Assembly (NCBI GenBank): GCA_963717145.1
Contig: OY970325.1
Location: 3,104,001 to 3,168,000 of the forward strand
Length of the DNA: 64,000 bases
Direction: 5' to 3'
From: an uncultured Armatimonadetes bacterium
GTDB lineage: Bacteria; Armatimonadota; UBA5829; DTJY01
Shown: positions 3,892 through 56,228 of the stretch, one piece after another
Layout of the letters: each line of letters starts with the position of its first letter
How positions within the stretch are numbered: the stretch's first letter is position 1
Program-made: the position numbers and the translations under genes
Notes under the pieces: generated by a model
The model's input: the letters and a program-made list of their open reading frames with translations, nothing else
The model's database searches: none
Told to the model about the DNA's origin: nothing

Positions 3892-3950
3892 AGGTATTAG
3901 GTGTTGGGTGTTAGGTGTTAGGGTGCCCCAACACCCAACACCTAACACCC
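3892..3950. repeat. Inverted heptamer array (TGTTRGG)n...(CCYAACA)n in the ilvB 5' UTR
   Basis: AGGTATTAGGTGTTGGGTGTTAGGTGTTAGGG-tg-CCCCAACACCCAACACCTAACACCC. Confidence 0.8.
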
Positions 3951-3963
3951 ACAACCCCCATGC

Positions 3964-46978: not shown

Positions 46979-48727
46979 ATGCCTGAGTACCCGAAAACGA
47001 CAACTTCAACACTCGATCTGTCGAAGCGCAGACCGTTGGCGCAACCCAAGGCCACGCCTGAGGAACTGCTCGAACGCGCAAACGCGCTTCTCCATGCGTC
47101 CGAGAGAATCCTGCAGGCCGGACGTGCCGAGGAGTTGCTGCAGATCACCGTGGATGCGGCGCGACATATCACCGGGGCGCGGCTCGCAGCGGCGGACTAT
47201 GCGTGTTCCGACGGTGAATCTGCGATCGGGGCCAGCTCCGTAGATCCGACTCTCGGGACATTCCCGATGCTCGCCAGAACTCGCGGGCGGCTGCTCTTCG
47301 AGATCGCAAGGGCCGGCAAGTCAATCAGACTAACGGATGAACAGGTTCAGGCCGACGACACATGGAACCGTCTTCCGGCAGGCCATGTGCCGCTGCGCGG
47401 GCTTCTGATCATGCCGATCCCAGGACAGGGCCACATCCTGGTCTCCGACAAACCCGACGGCGGGGAGTTCACGCGTGATGACGAGGCCATCCTGGCGCGG
47501 CTTGCGGCAATCACATCGGGCGCCCTGCGGCTTCTCGAGGCAAGACACGAGGCCGAGCGGAGGGCCAAGCAGGCAGAAGACGGCCAGCGGACTCTCGACG
47601 CACTGATGGATTTCATCCCTGAGGGAATCGCAATCACCGACGGCGCTAACGTCACGATCCACAGGGTCAGCCGGCATGGACAGGAACTCGGCGGTCAGCA
47701 TCACGAAGCCGTCGAAGGCATCCCTGTGGAGGATCACTTTGCGAACTGGGGCATCCTTGGCCCCGACGGGAATACTCTTGCGAACTCGGACCTTCCGCTG
47801 AGTCGCGCCGCCCGAAACGGCGAGATCACCGTCAACCAGGAATGGGTCATCGAGAGGCCGGACGGGACCAAGATCACTACGCTCTGCAGCGCCGCCCCGA
47901 TACGCGACGAGAGCGGCGAGGTCGTCGGCGGAGTGATGGCATGGCGGGACATCACCGACATCAGGACGTCGCGGACCGAACTGGAGAAGGCCTATGAGCG
48001 CGAGCGGCATTCGTCGGAGGTCCTCCAGCGGGCCCTCGCCCCTCGGAAACTCTCCGTCGGCCCGGGTTACCGTACCGCCAGCAGATACCTTCCCGCTCAT
48101 TCGGGACATGAGATCGGCGGGGACTTCTACGACGTTTTCACTACCGATGGCGGCAAGGTAGCCGTCCTCATCGGGGATGTCGCGGGCAAGGGACTCGACG
48201 CAGCCGGACTCGCGGCCGCCACTCGCAGCACGGTGCGCGCATTCGCGTTCAAATCATCATCCGCAGGCGAGGCCCTCACTCACGCGAATTGCGTTCTGTA
48301 TCCCCAGCAGCCCTGGGGCTCGTTCGTGACCGTGTCACTGGCAATCATCGACCCACCCACCGGCCAGATCACCTACGCCAGCGCCGGACACCCGCCGGCG
48401 GCGGTTCGACGTGAGAACGGAGACATCGAGTTCTTCGAGATCGGCTGTCCACCGTTCGGCCTGGCGGAGGACATGGAGTTCGAGGAGCACGGATTCGATC
48501 TCTTCCCTCGCGACAAGATCGTCTTCTACACGGATGGGGTCTCCGAGGCGCGGCACGACGCAACTCTATTCGGAACCGAGGGGGTCGAGCGGATACTTCG
48601 GAATCACGGCGATTGTGCACCCGATGACTTCCTGAACAAGCTGCTCGGGGCCGCCGGCAAGTGGGCTCAGGGGCAGCTCAAGGATGACGCCGCCGTCATA
48701 GTGATCGAGCGCGCAGCCAACGATTGA
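46979..48727 (+). CDS. GAF-PAS-SpoIIE (PP2C) phosphatase
   Basis: LPAGHVPLRG GAF; PAS/PAC; IGGDFYDV, IGDVAGKG, ASAGHPP, YTDGVSEA, DDAA. Confidence 0.9.
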   Translation: MPEYPKTTTSTLDLSKRRPLAQPKATPEELLERANALLHASERILQAGRAEELLQITVDAARHITGARLAAADYACSDGESAIGASSVDPTLGTFPMLARTRGRLLFEIARAGKSIRLTDEQVQADDTWNRLPAGHVPLRGLLIMPIPGQGHILVSDKPDGGEFTRDDEAILARLAAITSGALRLLEARHEAERRAKQAEDGQRTLDALMDFIPEGIAITDGANVTIHRVSRHGQELGGQHHEAVEGIPVEDHFANWGILGPDGNTLANSDLPLSRAARNGEITVNQEWVIERPDGTKITTLCSAAPIRDESGEVVGGVMAWRDITDIRTSRTELEKAYERERHSSEVLQRALAPRKLSVGPGYRTASRYLPAHSGHEIGGDFYDVFTTDGGKVAVLIGDVAGKGLDAAGLAAATRSTVRAFAFKSSSAGEALTHANCVLYPQQPWGSFVTVSLAIIDPPTGQITYASAGHPPAAVRRENGDIEFFEIGCPPFGLAEDMEFEEHGFDLFPRDKIVFYTDGVSEARHDATLFGTEGVERILRNHGDCAPDDFLNKLLGAAGKWAQGQLKDDAAVIVIERAAND

Positions 48728-48736
48728 CTGACGTGA

Positions 48737-48778
48737 GACTCTAGACTTTAGGCTTTGGACTTTCGACCTTCGACTCCC
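48737..48778. repeat. Heptamer tandem array (GACTTTN)x6, single arm
   Basis: GACTCTA GACTTTA GGCTTTG GACTTTC GACCTTC GACTCCC, followed by TGaTATAAT (48784-48792). Confidence 0.7.
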
Positions 48779-48801: not shown

Positions 48802-49389
48802 ATGATCTACGCCGATTGCCCGCCACTGCCCAGGGAGTTCTACCTCCGGGACACCATCGAAGTCGCGAGATCGATCCTCGGCAAGGTGATCGTCCACCGC
48901 ACGCCTGAGACTCTGATCGCCGGGCGGATCGTCGAGGCCGAGGCATACACGAGCAATGACCCGTCATGCCACGCGTGCCGTGGGATGACGAAACGAAATG
49001 CCCAGATGTTCGGTGAGCCGGGGCATGCGTACATCTACTTCACTTACGGAATGTACTACTGCCTGAACGCCGTGACAGCGCCGGAGGGGGTCGCCGAGGC
49101 GGTGCTCATCCGGGCGGCCGAGCCGCTCCAGGGCATCGACCTGATGGTGAGGAATCGGGGCACGGACGTGTTGACCAATCTCGCGAGCGGACCGGGGAAG
49201 CTCTGCATGGCGTTCGGGCTCGAAAAGAGCCAGAACGGGCTCGACCTCACCGGCAGCGACCTCATGATCGTCGACGACGGCTTCGTCCCCAGCGAGATCG
49301 TGACTGCCACGCGCATCGGAATCCGCCTCGCCACCGACTACCCCTGGCGGTTCTACGTCAAGGGCAACCCACACGTGTCACGGCGGTAA
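48802..49389 (+). CDS. mpg: DNA-3-methyladenine glycosylase (MPG)
   Basis: GRIVEAEAY, HAYIYFTYGMYYCLN, AVLIRAAEP, SGPGKLC, RIGI...PWRFY. Confidence 0.93.
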   Translation: MIYADCPPLPREFYLRDTIEVARSILGKVIVHRTPETLIAGRIVEAEAYTSNDPSCHACRGMTKRNAQMFGEPGHAYIYFTYGMYYCLNAVTAPEGVAEAVLIRAAEPLQGIDLMVRNRGTDVLTNLASGPGKLCMAFGLEKSQNGLDLTGSDLMIVDDGFVPSEIVTATRIGIRLATDYPWRFYVKGNPHVSRR

Positions 49390-49529
49390 ATTCGAAATTC
49401 GAAGCTCGAAATTCGAAACAAATCCGAATGACTGAAATCAGAAAAGGCAAACAAACCGCTGCGGATGGGTCGTTTGCCTTTTGCTTGTTTGCATTTTGTT
49501 TCGAATTTCGAGCTTCGAATTTCGAATTT
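49388..49529. repeat. Empty (TCGAAAT)n element with perfect 35-bp terminal inverted repeats
   Basis: AAATTCGAAATTCGAAGCTCGAAATTCGAAACAAA (49388-49422) and its exact reverse complement (49495-49529); overlaps the mpg TAA. Confidence 0.9.
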
Positions 49530-49534
49530 TGCCC

Positions 49535-50716
49535 TCAGGCTATCTCTTCGTCGGTGAGGTAACACGCCGGGTCGGGCGCCCAGATGTCGCTGTGGACCGC
49601 CTCCGCTCGGACGCGGAAGTTTCCGTTGCAGATATCGAGCCACTTGCACGAGGCGCATCGCCCGGTCAGCAGCTTTTTGCGGTCTTTGAGACCGGCCATC
49701 AGCGGGTCGGAGGTGTCCGTCCAGATCTCGCTGAACGGACGCTCCCGGACATTCCCGAACGAGTGATGCCACCAGAACTGATCGGCGTGGACGTTGCCCT
49801 CGTTGTCGATGTCCGCGATGCCGATCCCGGAGCTGTTCCCGCCGTTCCATTCGAGGAGCTGGAGCACCTCGTCCACGCGGGGACTGCCCTCTCGGAGCAT
49901 GCGCATGTAGAGGTACGGCCCGTCGCAGTGGTTATCGACGGTGAGGATATCGACATCGAGCCCGCGCCGCATCATGTCCGCCGTGCGATCGATGATCAGG
50001 TCAACGGCCTTCCGCGATTCCTCGTGCGTAAGGTCATCCGCCTGCATCGCGCTTCCACGACCGGTGTAGACGAGGTGGTAGAAGCACGCGCGGTTGATCT
50101 TGTGCTCCTCGATGAAGTCGAAGATGCGCGTCGAGCTGCTCGTAGTTGTGGCGCGTGAGAGTCAGCCGTAGACCGACCTTCTGCCCGACGGCGACGCAGT
50201 TGTCGAAGCCGCGCATCGCCGCCTCGAACGCGCCTTCCTTTCCGCGGAAGAAGTCGTTCGACTCGCCGATCCCGTCCAGGCTGAAATGCCGACGTAGCCG
50301 AAATCGGTCTCCTTGATGCGCTCGGCGACCTTCTCCGTGATGAGCGTGCCGTTCGTCGAGATCACGGGCCGGATGCCGAGTTCCTTGCAGAGCGCGGCGT
50401 TCTCGTACATGTCCTCTCGGATCAACGGCTCGCCGCCGGAGAAGAGGAACACCGGCGCGCCGAACTCGCCGAGGTCGCGGATGATCGTCTGGATCTCCTC
50501 GGTTGACATCTCGTTCGGATACGCCTTGTTGTCGGAGTCGGCGTAGCAGTGGATGCATTTGAGGTTGCACCGGCGCGTCCCGTTCCAGACCACGATCGGC
50601 TTCTTGTCGGCCGAGTACTGGAGCAGGTGCGCGGGCATCCCCTCGCTCTTGCGTCCATATCGAAGCGGGTCACCGGTCGTCGCCGTCCCGCAGTATAGTT
50701 TTGTTATTCCAATCAT
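49535..50716 (-). CDS. ahbC: AhbC/NirJ1-like radical SAM/SPASM protein (alternative heme pathway), two frameshifts (~50285, ~50128)
   Basis: MIGITKLYCG...LRYGR, CNLKCIHC, SGGEP, YVGIS-LDG, RACFYHLVYTGRG, TVDNHCDG, CNGNFRVRAEA..DPACYL. Confidence 0.8.
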
Positions 50717-50729
50717 TGTTTTCCCTTCT

Positions 50730-51161
50730 TCACCGGGCCAGGCACGGAGGAATCCATACGCCTCTTCCTCTAAGGGTCAGCCGCGTTCGAACTCCAACGT
50801 CAACCGCCTGACTCAAGAACTGCCGATCGCGAAACGCACGAAGCAGATTCTTTGAGTCCATCCTAAGAACGAGACTCCGAACAACCCACTTTGGATCTGG
50901 AGCAAGCGTGAGCAGTTGTATGGCATCTCTGGCCTCATCAGAGGTCAGGTTGCGCAAGCCAGGGCATGTCCTGAATTCTGCAAAGGCATCGTCCAGAGCA
51001 GCTTCCTTCGAACCGATCTGTGCGTAGACTCCATCATAAACTTGCTCGAACCGGCGCAGGTGCACCGCAGTGGAAAATCCTCTGTGCATCCGCATCAGCA
51101 TGTAGCCGACAAACAGCACTATGAATACTCCGACGATGCCTATCACGATCCAGATCGTCAC
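50730..51161 (-). CDS. Hypothetical membrane-anchored protein
   Basis: N-terminal TM MTIWIVIGIVGVFIVLFVGYML; GGAG RBS. Confidence 0.55.
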   Translation of the reverse strand: MTIWIVIGIVGVFIVLFVGYMLMRMHRGFSTAVHLRRFEQVYDGVYAQIGSKEAALDDAFAEFRTCPGLRNLTSDEARDAIQLLTLAPDPKWVVRSLVLRMDSKNLLRAFRDRQFLSQAVDVGVRTRLTLRGRGVWIPPCLAR

Positions 51162-51233
51162 GGCTGACTCCAGTTGACCGCACGATCAGCAGGCTAGCCT
51201 ACCGTCGCACGTTCCGTTGTCTGTACGGTACTC

Positions 51234-52145
51234 CTATTGCGAGGCTTTGATCTCAGGTCTGGAGGTTCGAACAAAGGCTTTCCAGTCCTGACTGTTCTCT
51301 GCTCGCTCGACTACCTCGAGAACATAATCCAGGTCTTGTCCCACGAGCCGCCAATACTCATCCGGGTGGGACAGCAGGTCCTTGCGGTACAACTCGCTGC
51401 ACGTCGCAGCTTTGGAAGCGAGGCCCTGATCTGCGACCCCAGGTTTCGGTGGTTTGAGTAAGATATTGGAGACAACCCGAAGGTAAAGAAGAAGCACGAA
51501 TCGGAGCACGTTTATGCCAACTGACAAGACGGTTTCATCATAGGCAAAACCGAACCCCAATGGTTCCTTTTGCCCTTCCTTACCTATCTCTACCACTTGC
51601 CGAAGCACCGTTATCTCGTAGCAATGAGCCATGGATGATAGAACTGCGTACTCAGTCCACCCCAGTCGGAGTTGATCCCTGACAAGATTGGTTAGCTGGA
51701 ACTGCCGAACACCTTTTCCCTTTGGCCCGAAACTCCAGTAGGTGTCGTCCGGGTACAACGACACATGTACTATCCGAAAGAAGGCTTCGTAAGCTATTCG
51801 CATCAGCGCGAAAGCATCTTCATAGTAGCCCCTCACTAGTCTATCGAATGCTGAATAGATTGGTTTGATATTCTCTACGGTGAAGACGAACTGCACCAGT
51901 CTGTGTCCTGGCCATTCCTTCCTATCTGCCCCGAAGTTAACGTAGCCTGCAATATCCACCAGCACCTTATAGGTGCACTCAAACTGATTCACGAATCGAC
52001 CACGTTTGTCCAGAACCAGTGCCAAGTGCTCCTCTTCGCGCTCTCTGATCCAATCGGTGACGTCGCGGCCTGGGTTCTCTTGGCAGAAGGCGTCGAACTC
52101 TCGAGTCAGAGCCTCAATATCGATGCCTGATCCCATGTCAGTCAT
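51234..52145 (-). CDS. Hypothetical protein, DUF5677/HEPN-like motifs, AT-richer than neighbours
   Basis: GYYEDAFALMRIAYE and YAVLSSMAH motifs; start overlaps the cobA stop region. Confidence 0.6.
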   Translation of the reverse strand: MTDMGSGIDIEALTREFDAFCQENPGRDVTDWIREREEEHLALVLDKRGRFVNQFECTYKVLVDIAGYVNFGADRKEWPGHRLVQFVFTVENIKPIYSAFDRLVRGYYEDAFALMRIAYEAFFRIVHVSLYPDDTYWSFGPKGKGVRQFQLTNLVRDQLRLGWTEYAVLSSMAHCYEITVLRQVVEIGKEGQKEPLGFGFAYDETVLSVGINVLRFVLLLYLRVVSNILLKPPKPGVADQGLASKAATCSELYRKDLLSHPDEYWRLVGQDLDYVLEVVERAENSQDWKAFVRTSRPEIKASQ

Positions 52146-53649
52146 GGGCGAGCGCTCCTCCCAAGCGTTCCTGCAACGCTCTCACCAACCCCTCGATCGT
52201 GTAGTCCTCCGCGACGATGTCCGGCTTGAGGCCGTGCTCCTCGGCGGTCTGGGCCGTGATCGGGCCTATACAGGCGATCGTGACGCCCTCGAGGACCGAC
52301 TCCCGGCCGACGAGCTGCACGAAATTCTTCACCGTCGAGGAGCTTGTGAACGTGATGATATCGATCTCGCCCTTCTGAAGCATCTCTTTGATCGGCGGCG
52401 CGCAGGACTCCTCGATCACCGTTTGATAAGACGTCACGACATCGACCTGCGCTCCCTTTTCCCGGAGCTTCTCCGGCAGGACTTCGCGCGCGTCTTTCGC
52501 CCCCGGAATCAGGATGCGCTTCCCGGCAGGGTCACTGAACTCCTCGGCGACCGATTCCGCGACAAACTTCGACGGGGTGAAATCGACCCTCACTCCCAGA
52601 CTCGCGATCGACTCAGCCGTTGCCGGACCGATCGCGCCGATCTTCGGTCCCTTGAGCGACCGCACGTCGCGCCCAAGCTGGTGCAGGCGGTCGACCGCAG
52701 CACGAACGGCGTTCGCGCTCGTGAAGAGCACCCAATCGTATGTCTCTATACGCTCCAAGGCGGCATCGAGTTCGTCAAAACTCTCCGGCGGCGAGATGCG
52801 GATGACCGGGAACTCGATCGGTTCCGCACCCTGCTCCCGGAGGAGTTCGGACAGCTCGCTCGCCTGGTCGCGGCTCCTCGTGACGAGCACCTTCTTCCCG
52901 AACAGCGGCCGGTTGTCGAACCAGCGCAGCTTCTCCCGCAGATTGACGACCTCGCCGACGACGGTGACCGCCGGCGACTTGAACCCGGTGGATTGCACCT
53001 TCTCCACAATGTCAGTGAGCGTCCCGACGAGCGTCTCCTGCTCGGTCCGCGTGCCCCATCGGACTAGCGCAACCGGGGTCGATGGATCGCGTCCGTTCGC
53101 CGTCAACTGCGAAACGATGTTCGGCAGGTTCTCCACGCCCATGAGGAAAACGAGGGTATCGAGCCCGAGGGAGATCTTATCCCACTTGATGCGCGACTCC
53201 TCGCCTTTCTCGTGGCCGGTGATGATCCCGAGCGCCGAGCAGCAGTCCCGATGCGTGACCGGGATGCCCGCGTATGCCGGGGCCGCGATCGCCGAGGTGA
53301 CTCCCGGCACTTCCTCCCACTCGATGCCCTGCTCGACGAGGGTCTCCGCCTCCTCGCCGCCGCGCCCGAAGACAAACGGGTCGCCACCCTTCAGGCGCGT
53401 GACGGTCTTGCCCTCCTTCGCCTTGTCCACGAGCAGTTGGTTGATGTCCCCCTGCTTCATGGTATGCGCGCTCGACGCCTTGCCGACGTAGATCAACTCG
53501 GCATCATTCCGTGCGCAGGCCAGAATCGAGGGATGCACCAGGCGATCGTATACGATCACATCCGCCTTGCGGATGCACTCCATTCCCTTCACCGTCAACA
53601 GACCCGGATCACCGGGTCCTGCACCAACTAGATAGACTCTGCCGTTCAT
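52138..53649 (-). CDS. cobA: Uroporphyrinogen-III C-methyltransferase / uroporphyrinogen-III synthase fusion (CobA-HemD)
   Basis: VYLVGAGPGDPGLLT, RLKGGDPFVFGRGGEE, VLVTR, FTSANAV, FTSSSTV, CIGPITA. Confidence 0.95.
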   Translation of the reverse strand: MNGRVYLVGAGPGDPGLLTVKGMECIRKADVIVYDRLVHPSILACARNDAELIYVGKASSAHTMKQGDINQLLVDKAKEGKTVTRLKGGDPFVFGRGGEEAETLVEQGIEWEEVPGVTSAIAAPAYAGIPVTHRDCCSALGIITGHEKGEESRIKWDKISLGLDTLVFLMGVENLPNIVSQLTANGRDPSTPVALVRWGTRTEQETLVGTLTDIVEKVQSTGFKSPAVTVVGEVVNLREKLRWFDNRPLFGKKVLVTRSRDQASELSELLREQGAEPIEFPVIRISPPESFDELDAALERIETYDWVLFTSANAVRAAVDRLHQLGRDVRSLKGPKIGAIGPATAESIASLGVRVDFTPSKFVAESVAEEFSDPAGKRILIPGAKDAREVLPEKLREKGAQVDVVTSYQTVIEESCAPPIKEMLQKGEIDIITFTSSSTVKNFVQLVGRESVLEGVTIACIGPITAQTAEEHGLKPDIVAEDYTIEGLVRALQERLGGALAHD

Positions 53650-53661
53650 ATTCACACTCGC

Positions 53662-54272
53662 CAAATTCGAAATTCGAACTACGAAATCCGAAACAATGAA
53701 GCAAAAAGCAAATCAGAAACCAAACCTTACCTTGCCAAAGCTGTTCAACTTTCGCCCTGGACTTTTCGCATGATTGCGCCGAAGATGTTCATCAGCTCGG
53801 TGGCCTCCTGCACGAACTTGCCTCTGTCTTTCTCGATATCGGGACTGCCTTGCGTTTCAATCAATCCCAGCCAGTAGCGGCACTCCTTAGCTTCCTTGCG
53901 ACAGATCTTGATTCGCATCAGGAAGTCCTTCTTGCTCAGCCCATCATTTGCCTCGATGTAGTTCGCGCCAACTGACCCGGATGCTCTGACAAGCTGCTTT
54001 GAGTCTTCGGTGTTGGCCAGAGTCTTCGGAAGCGCTCTGATGAACGTCCGTACGTCCTTAGCGAACAGGAAAGTCCTATCCTCAAGATCATACCGCTTTC
54101 CACCCTGTCCCTCGGTCATGCGCCACTCCTCGGACATCGGCTTTGGTGCTTCGAATTTCAGGTTTGCCTTACTGTTTCGAATTTCGAGTTTCGGATTTGG
54201 CTCTTGGTTTCGTGCTTCGGATTTCGAATTTGCCTTATTGTTTCGAATTTCGAGTTTCGGATTTCGAATTTG
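53662..54272. mobile_element. Putative four-helix-bundle cassette bounded by 36-bp (TCGAAAT)n inverted repeats
   Basis: Left CAAATTCGAAATTCGAACTACGAAATCCGAAACAAT (53662-53697); right ATTGTTTCGAATTTCGAGTTTCGGATTTCGAATTTG (54237-54272); extra units at 54150-54232. Confidence 0.65.
53745..54119 (-). CDS. Four helix bundle protein (23S rRNA IVP / Avd-like family)
   Basis: DLEDRTFLFA...QLVRASGSVGANYIEA...SKKDFLMRIKICRKEAKECRYWL...EATELMNIF; GAGGAG RBS. Confidence 0.92.
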   Translation of the reverse strand: MTEGQGGKRYDLEDRTFLFAKDVRTFIRALPKTLANTEDSKQLVRASGSVGANYIEANDGLSKKDFLMRIKICRKEAKECRYWLGLIETQGSPDIEKDRGKFVQEATELMNIFGAIMRKVQGES

Positions 54273-55845
54273 ACAACACCGAGTCCTTTGGGGTCTCGTT
54301 CAACTCCGGATAATCAAGATTGTAGTTTAGGCCGCGGCTCTCCTTGCGGGAGATCGCCGATTCGATGATCAGTGAGGCGGTGGTGACCATGTTCCGCAGC
54401 TCGAGCAGTTCACTGGTGAGCCGGCCCGTTGCGTACAGCTTCTCGACCCGGCATCCCAGTTCGCGGATTTCGTCTTTCGCCTTCTGAAGTCGCTCGTTCG
54501 TGCGCACGATCCCGACATACCGCCACATCGTTCGCTGAATCTCAGCCTTGAGGCCGTCGACGACATCGGGATCGATCTCCACGGTGTGCGCGGCTTTCTG
54601 GAAGTCGGGAATCTCCTCATCACCACCGACCGACGCGTATTGCATCGAGTCGCTGACCGCCCTGTGCGCAAAGACAACCGCCTCCAGTAGCGAGTTCGAT
54701 GCGAGCCGATTCGCGCCGTGGACTCCGGTGCAGGCGACTTCTCCACACGCGTAGAGCCGCTCGATCGAGGTCCGCGCGTTCACGTCGGTCAGCACGCCGC
54801 CGCAACTGTAGTGCGCCGCCGGGACGATCGGAATCTGCTCCGTGGTGATATCTATGCCCACCGAGAGGCACTTCTGGTGGATGGTCGGGAAGCGCTTCCT
54901 GATGTGCTCGGGGTCGAGATGAGTCACGTCCAGGAAGACGCACTCGTCGCCGCTCTTCTTCAACTCGGCGTCGATCGCGCGGGCGACGATATCCCTCGGC
55001 GCGAGGCAGCCCATCTCGTGGTAGTTCTCCATGAACGTGCTGCCGTCTTTGAGCCGGAGGATGCCGCCCTCTCCTCGGACTGCCTCTGAGATGAGGAACG
55101 ACCGCGCATCCGGGTGGTGGAGCGAGGTCGGATGGAACTGGATGAACTCCATGTTGGCGATGTCCGCGCCCGCTCGGAACGCCATCGCCACGCCGTCGCC
55201 GGTCGCGATCTCGGGGTTCGTGGTGTGGAGGTAGACCTGACCCGCGCCGCCGGTCGCGAGCATCGTAACTCTCGCGCGGAAAGTGGTGACTTCCTCGGTC
55301 TCGGTGTCGAGCACGTATGCCCCATAGCAGACCAGGCCATCCTCACTCGGTCTGGTGATCAGATCGATCGCATACTCGTGCTCGAAGACGCGGATGTTCT
55401 CCTGATGCTTGCACTGAACGATCAACGCGCGCTCGATCTCGTGACCGGTGAGGTCGGCGGAATGGAGGATGCGCCTCATGGAGTGTCCGCCCTCGCGGCC
55501 GAGCGCGAACTGGGTCTCGCCGGTGGGCGTCTTCTCCCTGCTGAACTTCACGCCGAACTCGACCAGTTCGCGGATTCGGTCGGGCCCTTCCTTGACGAGA
55601 ATCTCGACCGCCTCCTCGCAGCAGAGGCCTGCCCCCGCCACGAGTGTGTCGCGGATATGAAGATCGAACTTATCATCCGGGCTGGTGACTCCCGCGATCC
55701 CACCCTGGGCGTAGTTCGTATTCGATTCGGTATCGCTCTTTTTCGTGACGAGTGCGACCCTGCCGAGCTTCGACACCTTGAGCGCGAAACTCAGGCCTGC
55801 AATGCCGCTCCCGAGAACGAGATAATCTACATCGATAACTGCCAT
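54235..55845 (-). CDS. nadB: L-aspartate oxidase
   Basis: GSGIAGL, NTNYAQGGI, REGGHS, QFHPT, LISEAVRGEG, LAPRDIVARAI, AAHYSCGG, HGANRLASNSLLE, ESRG. Confidence 0.96.
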   Translation of the reverse strand: MAVIDVDYLVLGSGIAGLSFALKVSKLGRVALVTKKSDTESNTNYAQGGIAGVTSPDDKFDLHIRDTLVAGAGLCCEEAVEILVKEGPDRIRELVEFGVKFSREKTPTGETQFALGREGGHSMRRILHSADLTGHEIERALIVQCKHQENIRVFEHEYAIDLITRPSEDGLVCYGAYVLDTETEEVTTFRARVTMLATGGAGQVYLHTTNPEIATGDGVAMAFRAGADIANMEFIQFHPTSLHHPDARSFLISEAVRGEGGILRLKDGSTFMENYHEMGCLAPRDIVARAIDAELKKSGDECVFLDVTHLDPEHIRKRFPTIHQKCLSVGIDITTEQIPIVPAAHYSCGGVLTDVNARTSIERLYACGEVACTGVHGANRLASNSLLEAVVFAHRAVSDSMQYASVGGDEEIPDFQKAAHTVEIDPDVVDGLKAEIQRTMWRYVGIVRTNERLQKAKDEIRELGCRVEKLYATGRLTSELLELRNMVTTASLIIESAISRKESRGLNYNLDYPELNETPKDSVLSNSKSETRNSKQ

Positions 55846-56228
55846 GAAAGCTTCTCTTTTCATTGCCGCCGGAAGCGCATTCCCGGCCGCGTCTGTCTTC
55901 GCTTTTTCCGTAGCAATTATCTCACTTCATGGCAGTCTGAGTCAACACGTCGCGTTGTGTCGGGTGCATTTCCGCAGAGTGGGTGCGCCTCTCGATATGC
56001 CGCCAGAGCGGCTACTCGAGGAGATCGGTGTTTGGGTTACCGGGGGAAACCAACCGTCTAGTGTCGAGTAGGTTTCTCTGGAAACCATATCGAGACACGG
56101 TGGCATTGCCACCCACTGAACTCGAATGCACCCCGTTGTGTCTTGGGGCGGTTGCTTGTTTCCGGCTCACCAGCATGATATACTCTCATGTCTCCACTGA
56201 ATCTGCAAGCAGCGTCGAGGTGCAACCT

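Follow-up and report, generated by a model that had tools for sequence, protein, structure and literature searches.

A four-helix-bundle gene wrapped in inverted heptamer arrays at the nadB-cobA junction of an uncultured Armatimonadetes bacterium: a candidate operon-spacer cassette with gene-less relatives

Introduction

In a 64,000-nt stretch of DNA from an uncultured Armatimonadetes bacterium (hereafter the window; assembly GCA_963717145.1, contig OY970325.1, positions 3,104,001 to 3,168,000), a small gene of the four-helix-bundle family PF05635 lies between nadB and cobA, enclosed by inverted arrays of the heptamer TCGAAAT, and a second element built on the same word, with no gene inside, stands after mpg. 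The question that this locus raises is whether the gene and its arrays form a single unit and, if so, of what kind. The locus joins two puzzles: the large PF05635 family, for which more than 8000 matches are listed, has been without an assigned function since its discovery in ribosomal RNA (rRNA) intervening sequences (IVSs), and intergenic heptamer repeats are likewise unexplained.

What is new here is that inverted heptamer arrays, each of its own word, enclose all four PF05635 genes of the genome, that each of the four words also forms gene-less hairpins, and that word and protein clade co-occur across the genomes of the family. On balance, it is probable that the window locus is a selfish cassette of the IVS type residing in an operon spacer, that its protein recognises its own word, and that the gene-less hairpins are satellites of it. 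Throughout, the genome of the window (G000) is considered together with ten others of the same taxonomic family (G001-G010; eleven genomes in all); since these genomes are kin, counts across them are not independent.

Results and Discussion

The Cassette at the nadB-cobA Junction

The four-helix-bundle gene (53745-54119, minus strand; 124 aa; PF05635/TIGR02436) is flanked by nadB, encoding L-aspartate oxidase (54235-55863, minus; Pfam FAD_binding_2, E 1.3e-96, and Succ_DH_flav_C), and by a cobA-hemD fusion (52138-53649, or to 53664, minus; Pfam TP_methylase and HEM4), all three genes lying on the minus strand, with the cassette gene oriented as its host operon. The ATG at 54119 is favoured over an in-frame upstream ATG at 54137 because GAGGAG sits 8 nt before it. 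On the 3' side of the coding strand stands an arm at 53662-53718 (minus; ...TTGTTTCGGATTTCG...AATTTG) with an inner zone of GCAAA words, and on the 5' side an arm block at 54142-54272 (minus), in which three modules of (AAATNCG)n ending in CGAAACA follow one another at 33-nt spacing (54142-54198, 54175-54231 and 54208-54264). The longest arm pair, 53662-53718 with 54216-54272, measures 57 nt and is 79% complementary; the 36-nt arms at 53662-53697 and 54237-54272 pair at 31 of 36 positions. The abundance of the word is far beyond expectation, a 13-mer of it occurring 23 times in the window at up to two mismatches against 0.94 expected, and none of 100 shuffles reaches 23. As RNA, the whole cassette has a predicted fold of -220 kcal/mol (z -3.5 from 20 shuffles), in which the outermost 5' module is the partner of the 3' arm.

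The end of NadB reads ...VLS-NSKSETRNSKQ*, where the last 11 codons and the stop after VLS are supplied by the arm, because the cassette sits inside the last nadB codons. The likely start of cobA is the ATG at 53649 (MNGRVYLVG), chosen by alignment with G001 and G006, 12 nt beyond the arm. A promoter scan of 49200-56100 gave no sigma-70-like match within the cassette; the sole match, a consensus match only, lies upstream of nadB (55916-55945, minus). The genome encodes RNase III.

The history of the junction can be read from the relatives. NadB is found at E ≤1e-50 in 10 of the 11 family genomes, G000 included. In G006, which belongs to a sister genus, the nadB stop overlaps the cobA start as ATGA and no cassette is present; the two genes are adjacent in G005 and G010 as well. 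In G000 and G001 the cassette occupies exactly the same point, inside the last nadB codons, and the NadB of G001 carries a 28-residue arm-encoded tail whose TGA overlaps the ATG of the cassette gene. Gene and arms are one inserted unit, which entered the last nadB codons, 10 nt short of the cobA start, in an ancestor that two genera share. Orthologues in G009 (63% identity; ABC-transporter-type neighbours, by reading of the flanks) and in G007 (a fragment at a contig end, also in an ABC-transporter-type context) stand elsewhere; they retain same-word arms, as does the one in G001.

The initial annotation of this locus had described a gene between two inverted repeats, wedged between nadB and cobA. 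The position and the inverted TCGAAAT arrays stand; the arms are imperfect, and the nadB side holds three modules, not one. Its statement that the repeat encodes the NadB tail is borne out by the eleven residues read from the arm, and the empty nadB-cobA site that it proposed to seek in relatives exists in G006.

As a separate observation, the orthologous gene of G009 (L013:1126-1440) has on one side four tandem copies of a module of about 95 nt, comprising arm and inner zone, which shows that arm modules are amplified; the three modules at 33-nt spacing in 54142-54272 of the window are a similar case. Two DNA runs from one soil sample (a small share) were also searched, and only diverged contigs matched. 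One contig from these runs joins 53697 to 54238 arm to arm; with a likeness below 95, it was not counted as excision and is most likely a gene-less hairpin of another organism.

Four Words and Their Gene-less Hairpins

In G000, each of the four PF05635 genes is enclosed by inverted arrays of a different word, namely AAATTCG (the window copy), GTTGATG/CCATCAA, AATGCAA and GGGTTNT/ANAACCC, and the other three genes (in genome coordinates, the set 2982875-2983378, 3893650-3894018 and 3610433-3610924) likewise lie between protein-coding open reading frames (ORFs); the TCGAAAT word was not found around these three paralogues. The co-existence of different words in one host rules out an origin of the arms that is specific to the host or to the site. 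Every word has exactly one gene-carrying pair, with a gap of 428-546 nt, next to a varying number of gene-less pairs: 12 for TCGAAAT (some sharing an arm), 70 for CCATCAA, and 2 and 1 for the other two. The genome holds about 55 TCGAAAT arrays, and its gene-less TCGAAAT elements amount to at least 13 long and 2 short hairpins.

The order of the arms is practically invariant (14 of 14 TCGAAAT pairs and 70 of 71 CCATCAA pairs). The 13 long TCGAAAT elements, of 140-165 nt, can be aligned over their arms and the inner GCAAA-word zone, the centre being variable and G+C-rich. Regarding their position, the median distance of the hairpins behind a gene end is 5.5 nt, a value that rests on crude gene calls, and the 71 CCATCAA contexts comprise 45 co-directional, 16 convergent and 7 divergent sites and 3 within genes. 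A census of G000 based on Tandem Repeats Finder (TRF) lists 164 inverted word-array pairs in 23 families.

Two further members of this landscape were noted. At G000:C1:2092697-2093173, a 131-aa gene of the GxxExxY / PD-(D/E)XK type (PDDEXK_3) lies within inverted octamer arrays AAGCCAGG; this family has eight pairs, the single GxxExxY/PDDEXK_3 carrier and seven gene-less hairpins at other genome sites. A nuclease-fold gene is thus also found in word-hairpin packaging. Within the window, a GGGTGTT/AACACCC heptamer hairpin is found at 3892-3957 (genome 3107892-3107957); this word has four hairpins in the genome, and none of the copies carries a gene.

Co-variation of Protein and Word

The number of PF05635 genes differs widely within the family, with 15 in G001, 13, 9, 6 and 3 in four other genomes, 4 in G000, and zero in 5 of the 11. 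Across 30 family loci, protein similarity is correlated with the similarity of the 5' arms (Mantel r 0.31; none of 5000 permutations reaches it). In a survey of words and orthologues covering 41 related genomes, TCGAAAT arms occur in five, all within the family, and the orthologous protein is present in four of those five. The CCATCAA arrays and the orthologue of their gene, IVP3, are found in exactly the same 3 of the 11 family genomes, and the word drifts as the IVP3 protein diverges (CAACCAT, TGACCAT, TAGCCAT).

Beyond the family, homologue loci were sampled from genome contigs (80) and from metagenome contigs (80). A locus was regarded as testable when at least 100 nt of flank were available on both sides (n = 152), and a flanking inverted repeat was scored as positive when it exceeded the 95th percentile of 221 shifted controls. 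Flanking inverted repeats above control are observed at 72 of the 80 genome loci and at 139 of the 152 testable loci overall, and the self-similarity of the flanks peaks at a lag of 7. The polarity is equally evident: CGAAA-type words stand upstream (at least two) in 93 of 142 loci and TTTCG-type words downstream in 102, the swapped sense being seen in only 3 and 8. The expectations of the initial annotation are upheld on both counts, that homologues are tied to flanking inverted heptamer arrays and that the protein clade co-varies with its repeat word, the latter by four paralogues with four words, the Mantel correlation and the co-occurrence across genomes.

Among the more than 8000 protein relatives in the matches listed, the best 120, at 65-93% identity, bear labels from several phyla. 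Sufficient flank was available at 109 loci, where the two neighbours share the strand of the gene in 69 and are both on the opposite strand in 8; a looser flank rule gives 71 loci with both neighbours on the same strand, of which 39 were run against Pfam. The neighbours so identified are varied operon partners: LeuC/LeuD, LeuA/LeuC, PheS/PheT, E2/E3, TldD/PmbA, PntA/PntB, ATP synthase alpha/gamma, PaaB/PaaA, ABC ATPase/permease and others. The median distance from the upstream ORF to the start of the arms is 7 nt, and in 26 of 83 cases the arms run into the end of that ORF. Word and arm polarity are the same in relatives of the same clade across many phyla, and the operon gene pairs that enclose them are diverse.

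Not every feature of the window copy is general. An inner GGCAA zone was considered as a common trait and was set aside, since most loci lack it (it stands upstream in 29 of 142 and in the swapped sense in 11 of 142). Metagenome contigs were searched for closer relatives bearing on recent mobility, and none above 76% identity was found with DNA; protein relatives of 93% and 82% identity are listed in the database. In two Bacteroidota loci (L103:442-1836 and L109:598-1854), FolD and the PF05635 domain share an open frame, with no stop codon between them; the arm may serve as a translated linker there, or FolD may have lost its stop.

The Four-Helix-Bundle Protein

The assignment of the protein is secure in both profile libraries, with 49 bits for PF05635 (E 7.9e-13; cut-off 33.8) and 71.2 bits for TIGR02436 (E 7.4e-20; cut-off 24). 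The AlphaFold model (predicted local distance difference test, pLDDT, 89.6) comprises four helices, at residues 13-28, 34-59, 63-86 and 93-121. The best fold matches are 2rld (BT_0352; template modelling (TM) scores 0.70/0.80), also matched by phmmer at E 4e-9, and 2gsc (Xcc0516; 0.58/0.63), structures that contain five chains each. Matches to Avd, the accessory protein of diversity-generating retroelements (DGRs), come next, with 4dwl at TM 0.68/0.75 (E 0.075) followed by the DGR ribonucleoprotein 8ub7, at E values of 0.075-0.1 and a sequence identity of 11-12%.

The gene is under purifying selection, as is readily apparent from the comparison with the G001 orthologue (dN 0.166, dS 1.613; dN/dS about 0.10), and 30 homologues of 65-93% identity have 40 invariant columns in common. 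The accessible part of PMC3936711 gives a conserved RxxxSxxxNxxE motif for the PF05635 family. It is present here as R45 A S G S49 V G A N53 Y I E56, and S49, N53 and E56 are invariant in the 30 homologues.

Concerning possible partner enzymes, RVT_1 gave no match in G000 at E ≤1e-5 and none in G001. Y1_Tnp has five matches in G000 and none in G001, the genome with 15 PF05635 genes, and it is present in G003 and G008, which have no PF05635 gene. Neither domain shares the distribution of the cassettes over the 11 family genomes.

The Gene-less Element after mpg

The gene-less element occupies 49388-49529, between the convergent mpg and radical-SAM genes. Its 142 nt comprise two 35-nt arms (49388-49422 and 49495-49529), 100% complementary and 72 nt apart, and an inner stem at 49442-49482 (AAAAGGCAAAC...GTTTGCCTTTT), after which T runs follow on both strands. 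The first arm overlaps the TAA stop of mpg (49387-49389), the gene for methylpurine DNA glycosylase (48802-49389, plus; Pfam Pur_DNA_glyco, E 4.4e-67). Both the perfect arms and the stop overlap had been reported in the initial annotation and are reproduced here. As RNA, the element has a predicted fold of -77.7 kcal/mol (z -9.2). The sole Rfam match obtained, to a plant microRNA hairpin model, lies on this element (38.8 bits against a gathering score of 95); it is below threshold and was taken as chance.

The same spacer has a different content in other family genomes, an element with another word being present after mpg in G001 (TCACTCA) and in G007 (GGTTATC). Together with the nadB site, occupied in G000 and G001 and empty in G006, the mpg spacer calls for a loss, a replacement or a second gain at least once, no matter whether G001 or G006 is the nearer relative. 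The element in the mpg spacer of G001 (L192) consists of GGAGTGA/(TCACTCA)n arrays around a G+C-rich palindrome resembling repetitive extragenic palindromic (REP) sequences.

Two observations were made in the neighbourhood. The radical-SAM/SPASM gene (49535-50716, minus; ahbC/D-like) contains an in-frame TGA-type stop, and some 50 codons read like another frame (an ORF at 50034-50570 overlaps); this disruption is a double frameshift, a pseudogene or an assembly error. Furthermore, a lone array of about five GACTTTN heptamers, with no inverted partner seen, lies at 48740-48775, between a SpoIIE-type phosphatase gene (stop at 48727) and the mpg start at 48802.

Proposed Mechanism and Alternatives

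The reading as an IVS-type cassette can be expressed as a sequence of steps. The cassette would be transcribed by read-through from the nadB promoter, and its arms may form a long stem, be it in RNA, in single-stranded DNA or in both. By analogy with rRNA IVSs, RNase III could cut this stem harmlessly because, as we propose, the flanking cistrons are translated separately. The four-helix protein would bind its own heptamer word, and such binding could explain why the sequence of the word, and not pairing alone, stays conserved. The 142-nt element at 49388-49529 and its relatives would be ORF-less satellites recognised by the same protein.

Several results weigh against this proposal. The 13 long TCGAAAT elements have a median identity of 63% and are old copies, and an orthologous, diverged TCGAAAT element lies in the same mpg spacer of G006; with gene-less copies diverged and the mpg copy common to G006, there is no sign of recent movement. 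In G006, TCGAAAT hairpins are present and the orthologue was not found. Families without a resident gene exist as well: in G000, the octamer AGTATGGG forms 40 hairpins and ACTCGT forms 7 with no resident PF05635 gene. The AGTATGGG word flanks a PF05635 gene in G004 (locus L216), and its hairpins in G000 look like orphan satellites. No target-site duplication was found at nadB-cobA when G000 and G001 were compared with the empty G006, where divergence could hide 1-2 nt, and the 30 nt on the outer side of 24 TCGAAAT and 138 CCATCAA ends yielded no conserved motif. Profile searches of the protein returned PF05635/TIGR02436 only and no nuclease, transposase or polymerase domain. The correlation of protein and word can arise from common descent of linked DNA without binding. 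Arm mismatches at 138 loci show no significant excess of G:U (335) over A:C (293; p 0.10), and thus give no sign of selection on a sense RNA stem; pairing may matter in DNA, or in both. The idea of five units per arm, matching a pentamer ring, is not supported by the broad distribution of arm lengths (median 45 nt, mode 6 units). The suggestion that full and empty forms behave as autonomous and MITE-like partners (MITE, miniature inverted-repeat transposable element) is retained in part: word, arm order and inner zone are common to both forms, and the absence of a transposase and of a target duplication, the age of the gene-less copies and the orphan families speak against it. The cassette at nadB-cobA is, moreover, not new, being common to the genus of G001, which is at odds with a simple autonomous/MITE picture.

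Some of these findings would suit a different explanation, in which the heptamer hairpins are RNA or DNA elements serving the host (bidirectional terminators, mRNA stabilisers or processing sites, like REP sequences or bacterial interspersed mosaic elements, BIMEs), the four-helix proteins are host regulators that bind these hairpins, and nothing is mobile today, vertical descent and slippage accounting for the pattern. The close spacing of the hairpins behind gene ends, mostly at co-directional and convergent sites, agrees with such a role, as do the T runs after the inner stem of the gene-less element, the maintenance of the mpg element at one site in G006, the age of the copies and the purifying selection on the protein. 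We nevertheless regard it as unlikely, because an empty ancestral nadB-cobA junction exists, the same mpg spacer holds different-word elements in G001 and G007, and the same cassette, with a protein 52-76% identical, is found between unrelated gene pairs in many phyla; conservation of the four-helix protein across phyla roughly equals that of NadB inside this single family (69-84%). Furthermore, since 5 of the 11 family genomes are without the gene, PF05635 is not a core host function. A still more sceptical view, that chance has placed an ordinary small gene between two copies of a frequent intergenic repeat, could appeal to the large number of TCGAAAT arrays in the genome; it is refuted for practical purposes by the enclosure of all four G000 genes by their own words and of 139 of 152 relatives, and by the arms retained in G001, G009 and G007.

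It is also conceivable that an unlinked enzyme acts in trans to move both hairpins and cassettes, either a transposase working on DNA hairpins (Y1/RAYT-type, the latter denoting REP-associated tyrosine transposases, or another) or a reverse transcriptase helped by the Avd-like protein, with the four-helix gene as cargo or accessory. The five Y1_Tnp matches in G000 would provide candidates, and the fold resembles that of Avd, a cofactor of the DGR reverse transcriptase (the 4dwl match given above). IS200/IS605-type elements are not known to leave a target duplication, and none is seen at nadB-cobA. We consider this possibility distinctly unlikely, taking into account that G001 combines 15 PF05635 genes with no Y1_Tnp or RVT_1 match, that G000 has no RVT_1, that G003 and G008 have Y1_Tnp and no PF05635 gene, and that only the four-helix gene travels with the arms across phyla.

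To return to the IVS-type cassette, a broader formulation may be offered tentatively, and we hold it to be doubtful. PF05635 proteins may be sequence-specific binders of heptamer words that maintain or copy hairpins; clade-owned words with their satellites would then constitute a new class of mobile element, guided by a protein and free of a transposase, which would explain rRNA IVSs and intergenic heptamer repeats together.

The locus is of value in several respects. G000, in which four proteins stand next to their four words and a fifth cassette carries a GxxExxY gene, would offer a natural 4 × 4 test of specificity; a clean empty site is available in a relative, and the element has given a host gene product, NadB, a new C-terminus. 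Binding of the word by the protein would yield a set of small, orthogonal pairs of protein and nucleic acid, and cutting of the stem would make the elements natural operon insulators. Annotation is concerned as well. In the accessible part of PMC3936711, a PF05635 gene between cmr3 and cmr2 in cas operons is read as a functional association; this and many other reported associations of PF05635 genes may be operon-spacer insertions.

Comparison with Known Systems

Tandem heptamers between genes have precedents, among them the short tandemly repeated repetitive (STRR) sequences of cyanobacteria, which are intergenic heptamer repeats. The TAACTGA repeats of Beggiatoaceae, cyanobacteria and Bacteroidetes, whose function is not known according to the accessible part of PMC4679880, resemble the present arrays as tandem 7-nt intergenic words near gene ends or starts that are common to distant phyla. 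They differ in being mainly direct repeats, and that portion of the text makes no mention of a four-helix bundle, an intervening sequence or S23.

With regard to the protein, the modelled four-helix-bundle fold is shared with Avd of diversity-generating retroelements. Avd works bound to nucleic acid and a polymerase, whereas no reverse transcriptase, template repeat or variable repeat lies near the window gene, and the genome has no RVT_1. MITEs and Correia-type elements are short inverted-repeat elements that are co-transcribed with their neighbours and sometimes supply gene ends, and Correia elements are reported targets of RNase III. The window system is similar in its short inverted repeats and in the arm that supplies the end of NadB; unlike them, it shows no target-site duplication and has no parent transposase, and its arms are tandem word arrays.

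A closer parallel in architecture is provided by the REPIN-RAYT systems, said to have been described by Bertels and Rainey in 2011, in which a single-copy gene is reportedly flanked by palindromic repeats that are also present as many gene-less intergenic hairpins. Both systems have an enclosed single-copy gene, many gene-less intergenic hairpins of the same repeat and no known target duplication. In contrast, the window gene codes for no Y1 transposase but for a four-helix bundle in which no catalytic motif is known; its repeats are tandem heptamer arrays, not GTAG-type REPs, and Y1_Tnp does not track the cassettes.

The 23S rRNA IVSs remain the principal comparison. Full-text searches of the openly readable literature found PF05635 cassettes with word arms described only inside rRNA genes. 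The accessible part of PMC4990558 describes the helix-45 IVS of Coxiella burnetii with its S23p gene, in which a terminal stem of 28 bp is present, tandem heptamers precede the ORF and RNase III cuts at the first heptamer, and names further ORF-bearing 23S rRNA IVSs for Leptospira, Xanthomonas and Brucella. There, the rRNA IVS is regarded as a selfish element of unclear origin, ORF-less IVSs exist, and the Coxiella ORF is reported to be decaying, in contrast to the purifying selection on the window gene. The window cassette also differs in location, since it lies in the nadB-cobA operon and not in rRNA helix 25 or 45, and in its arms, which are whole arrays of a clade-specific word with dozens of gene-less satellites of the same word in the genome. 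The Coxiella IVS is cut by RNase III, and it is on sequence grounds that the window cassette is likened to it. As far as the accessible text of PMC4990558 allows the comparison, both systems place a protein of the same family in the loop of a long terminal inverted-repeat stem, with heptamers before the ORF and no transposase.

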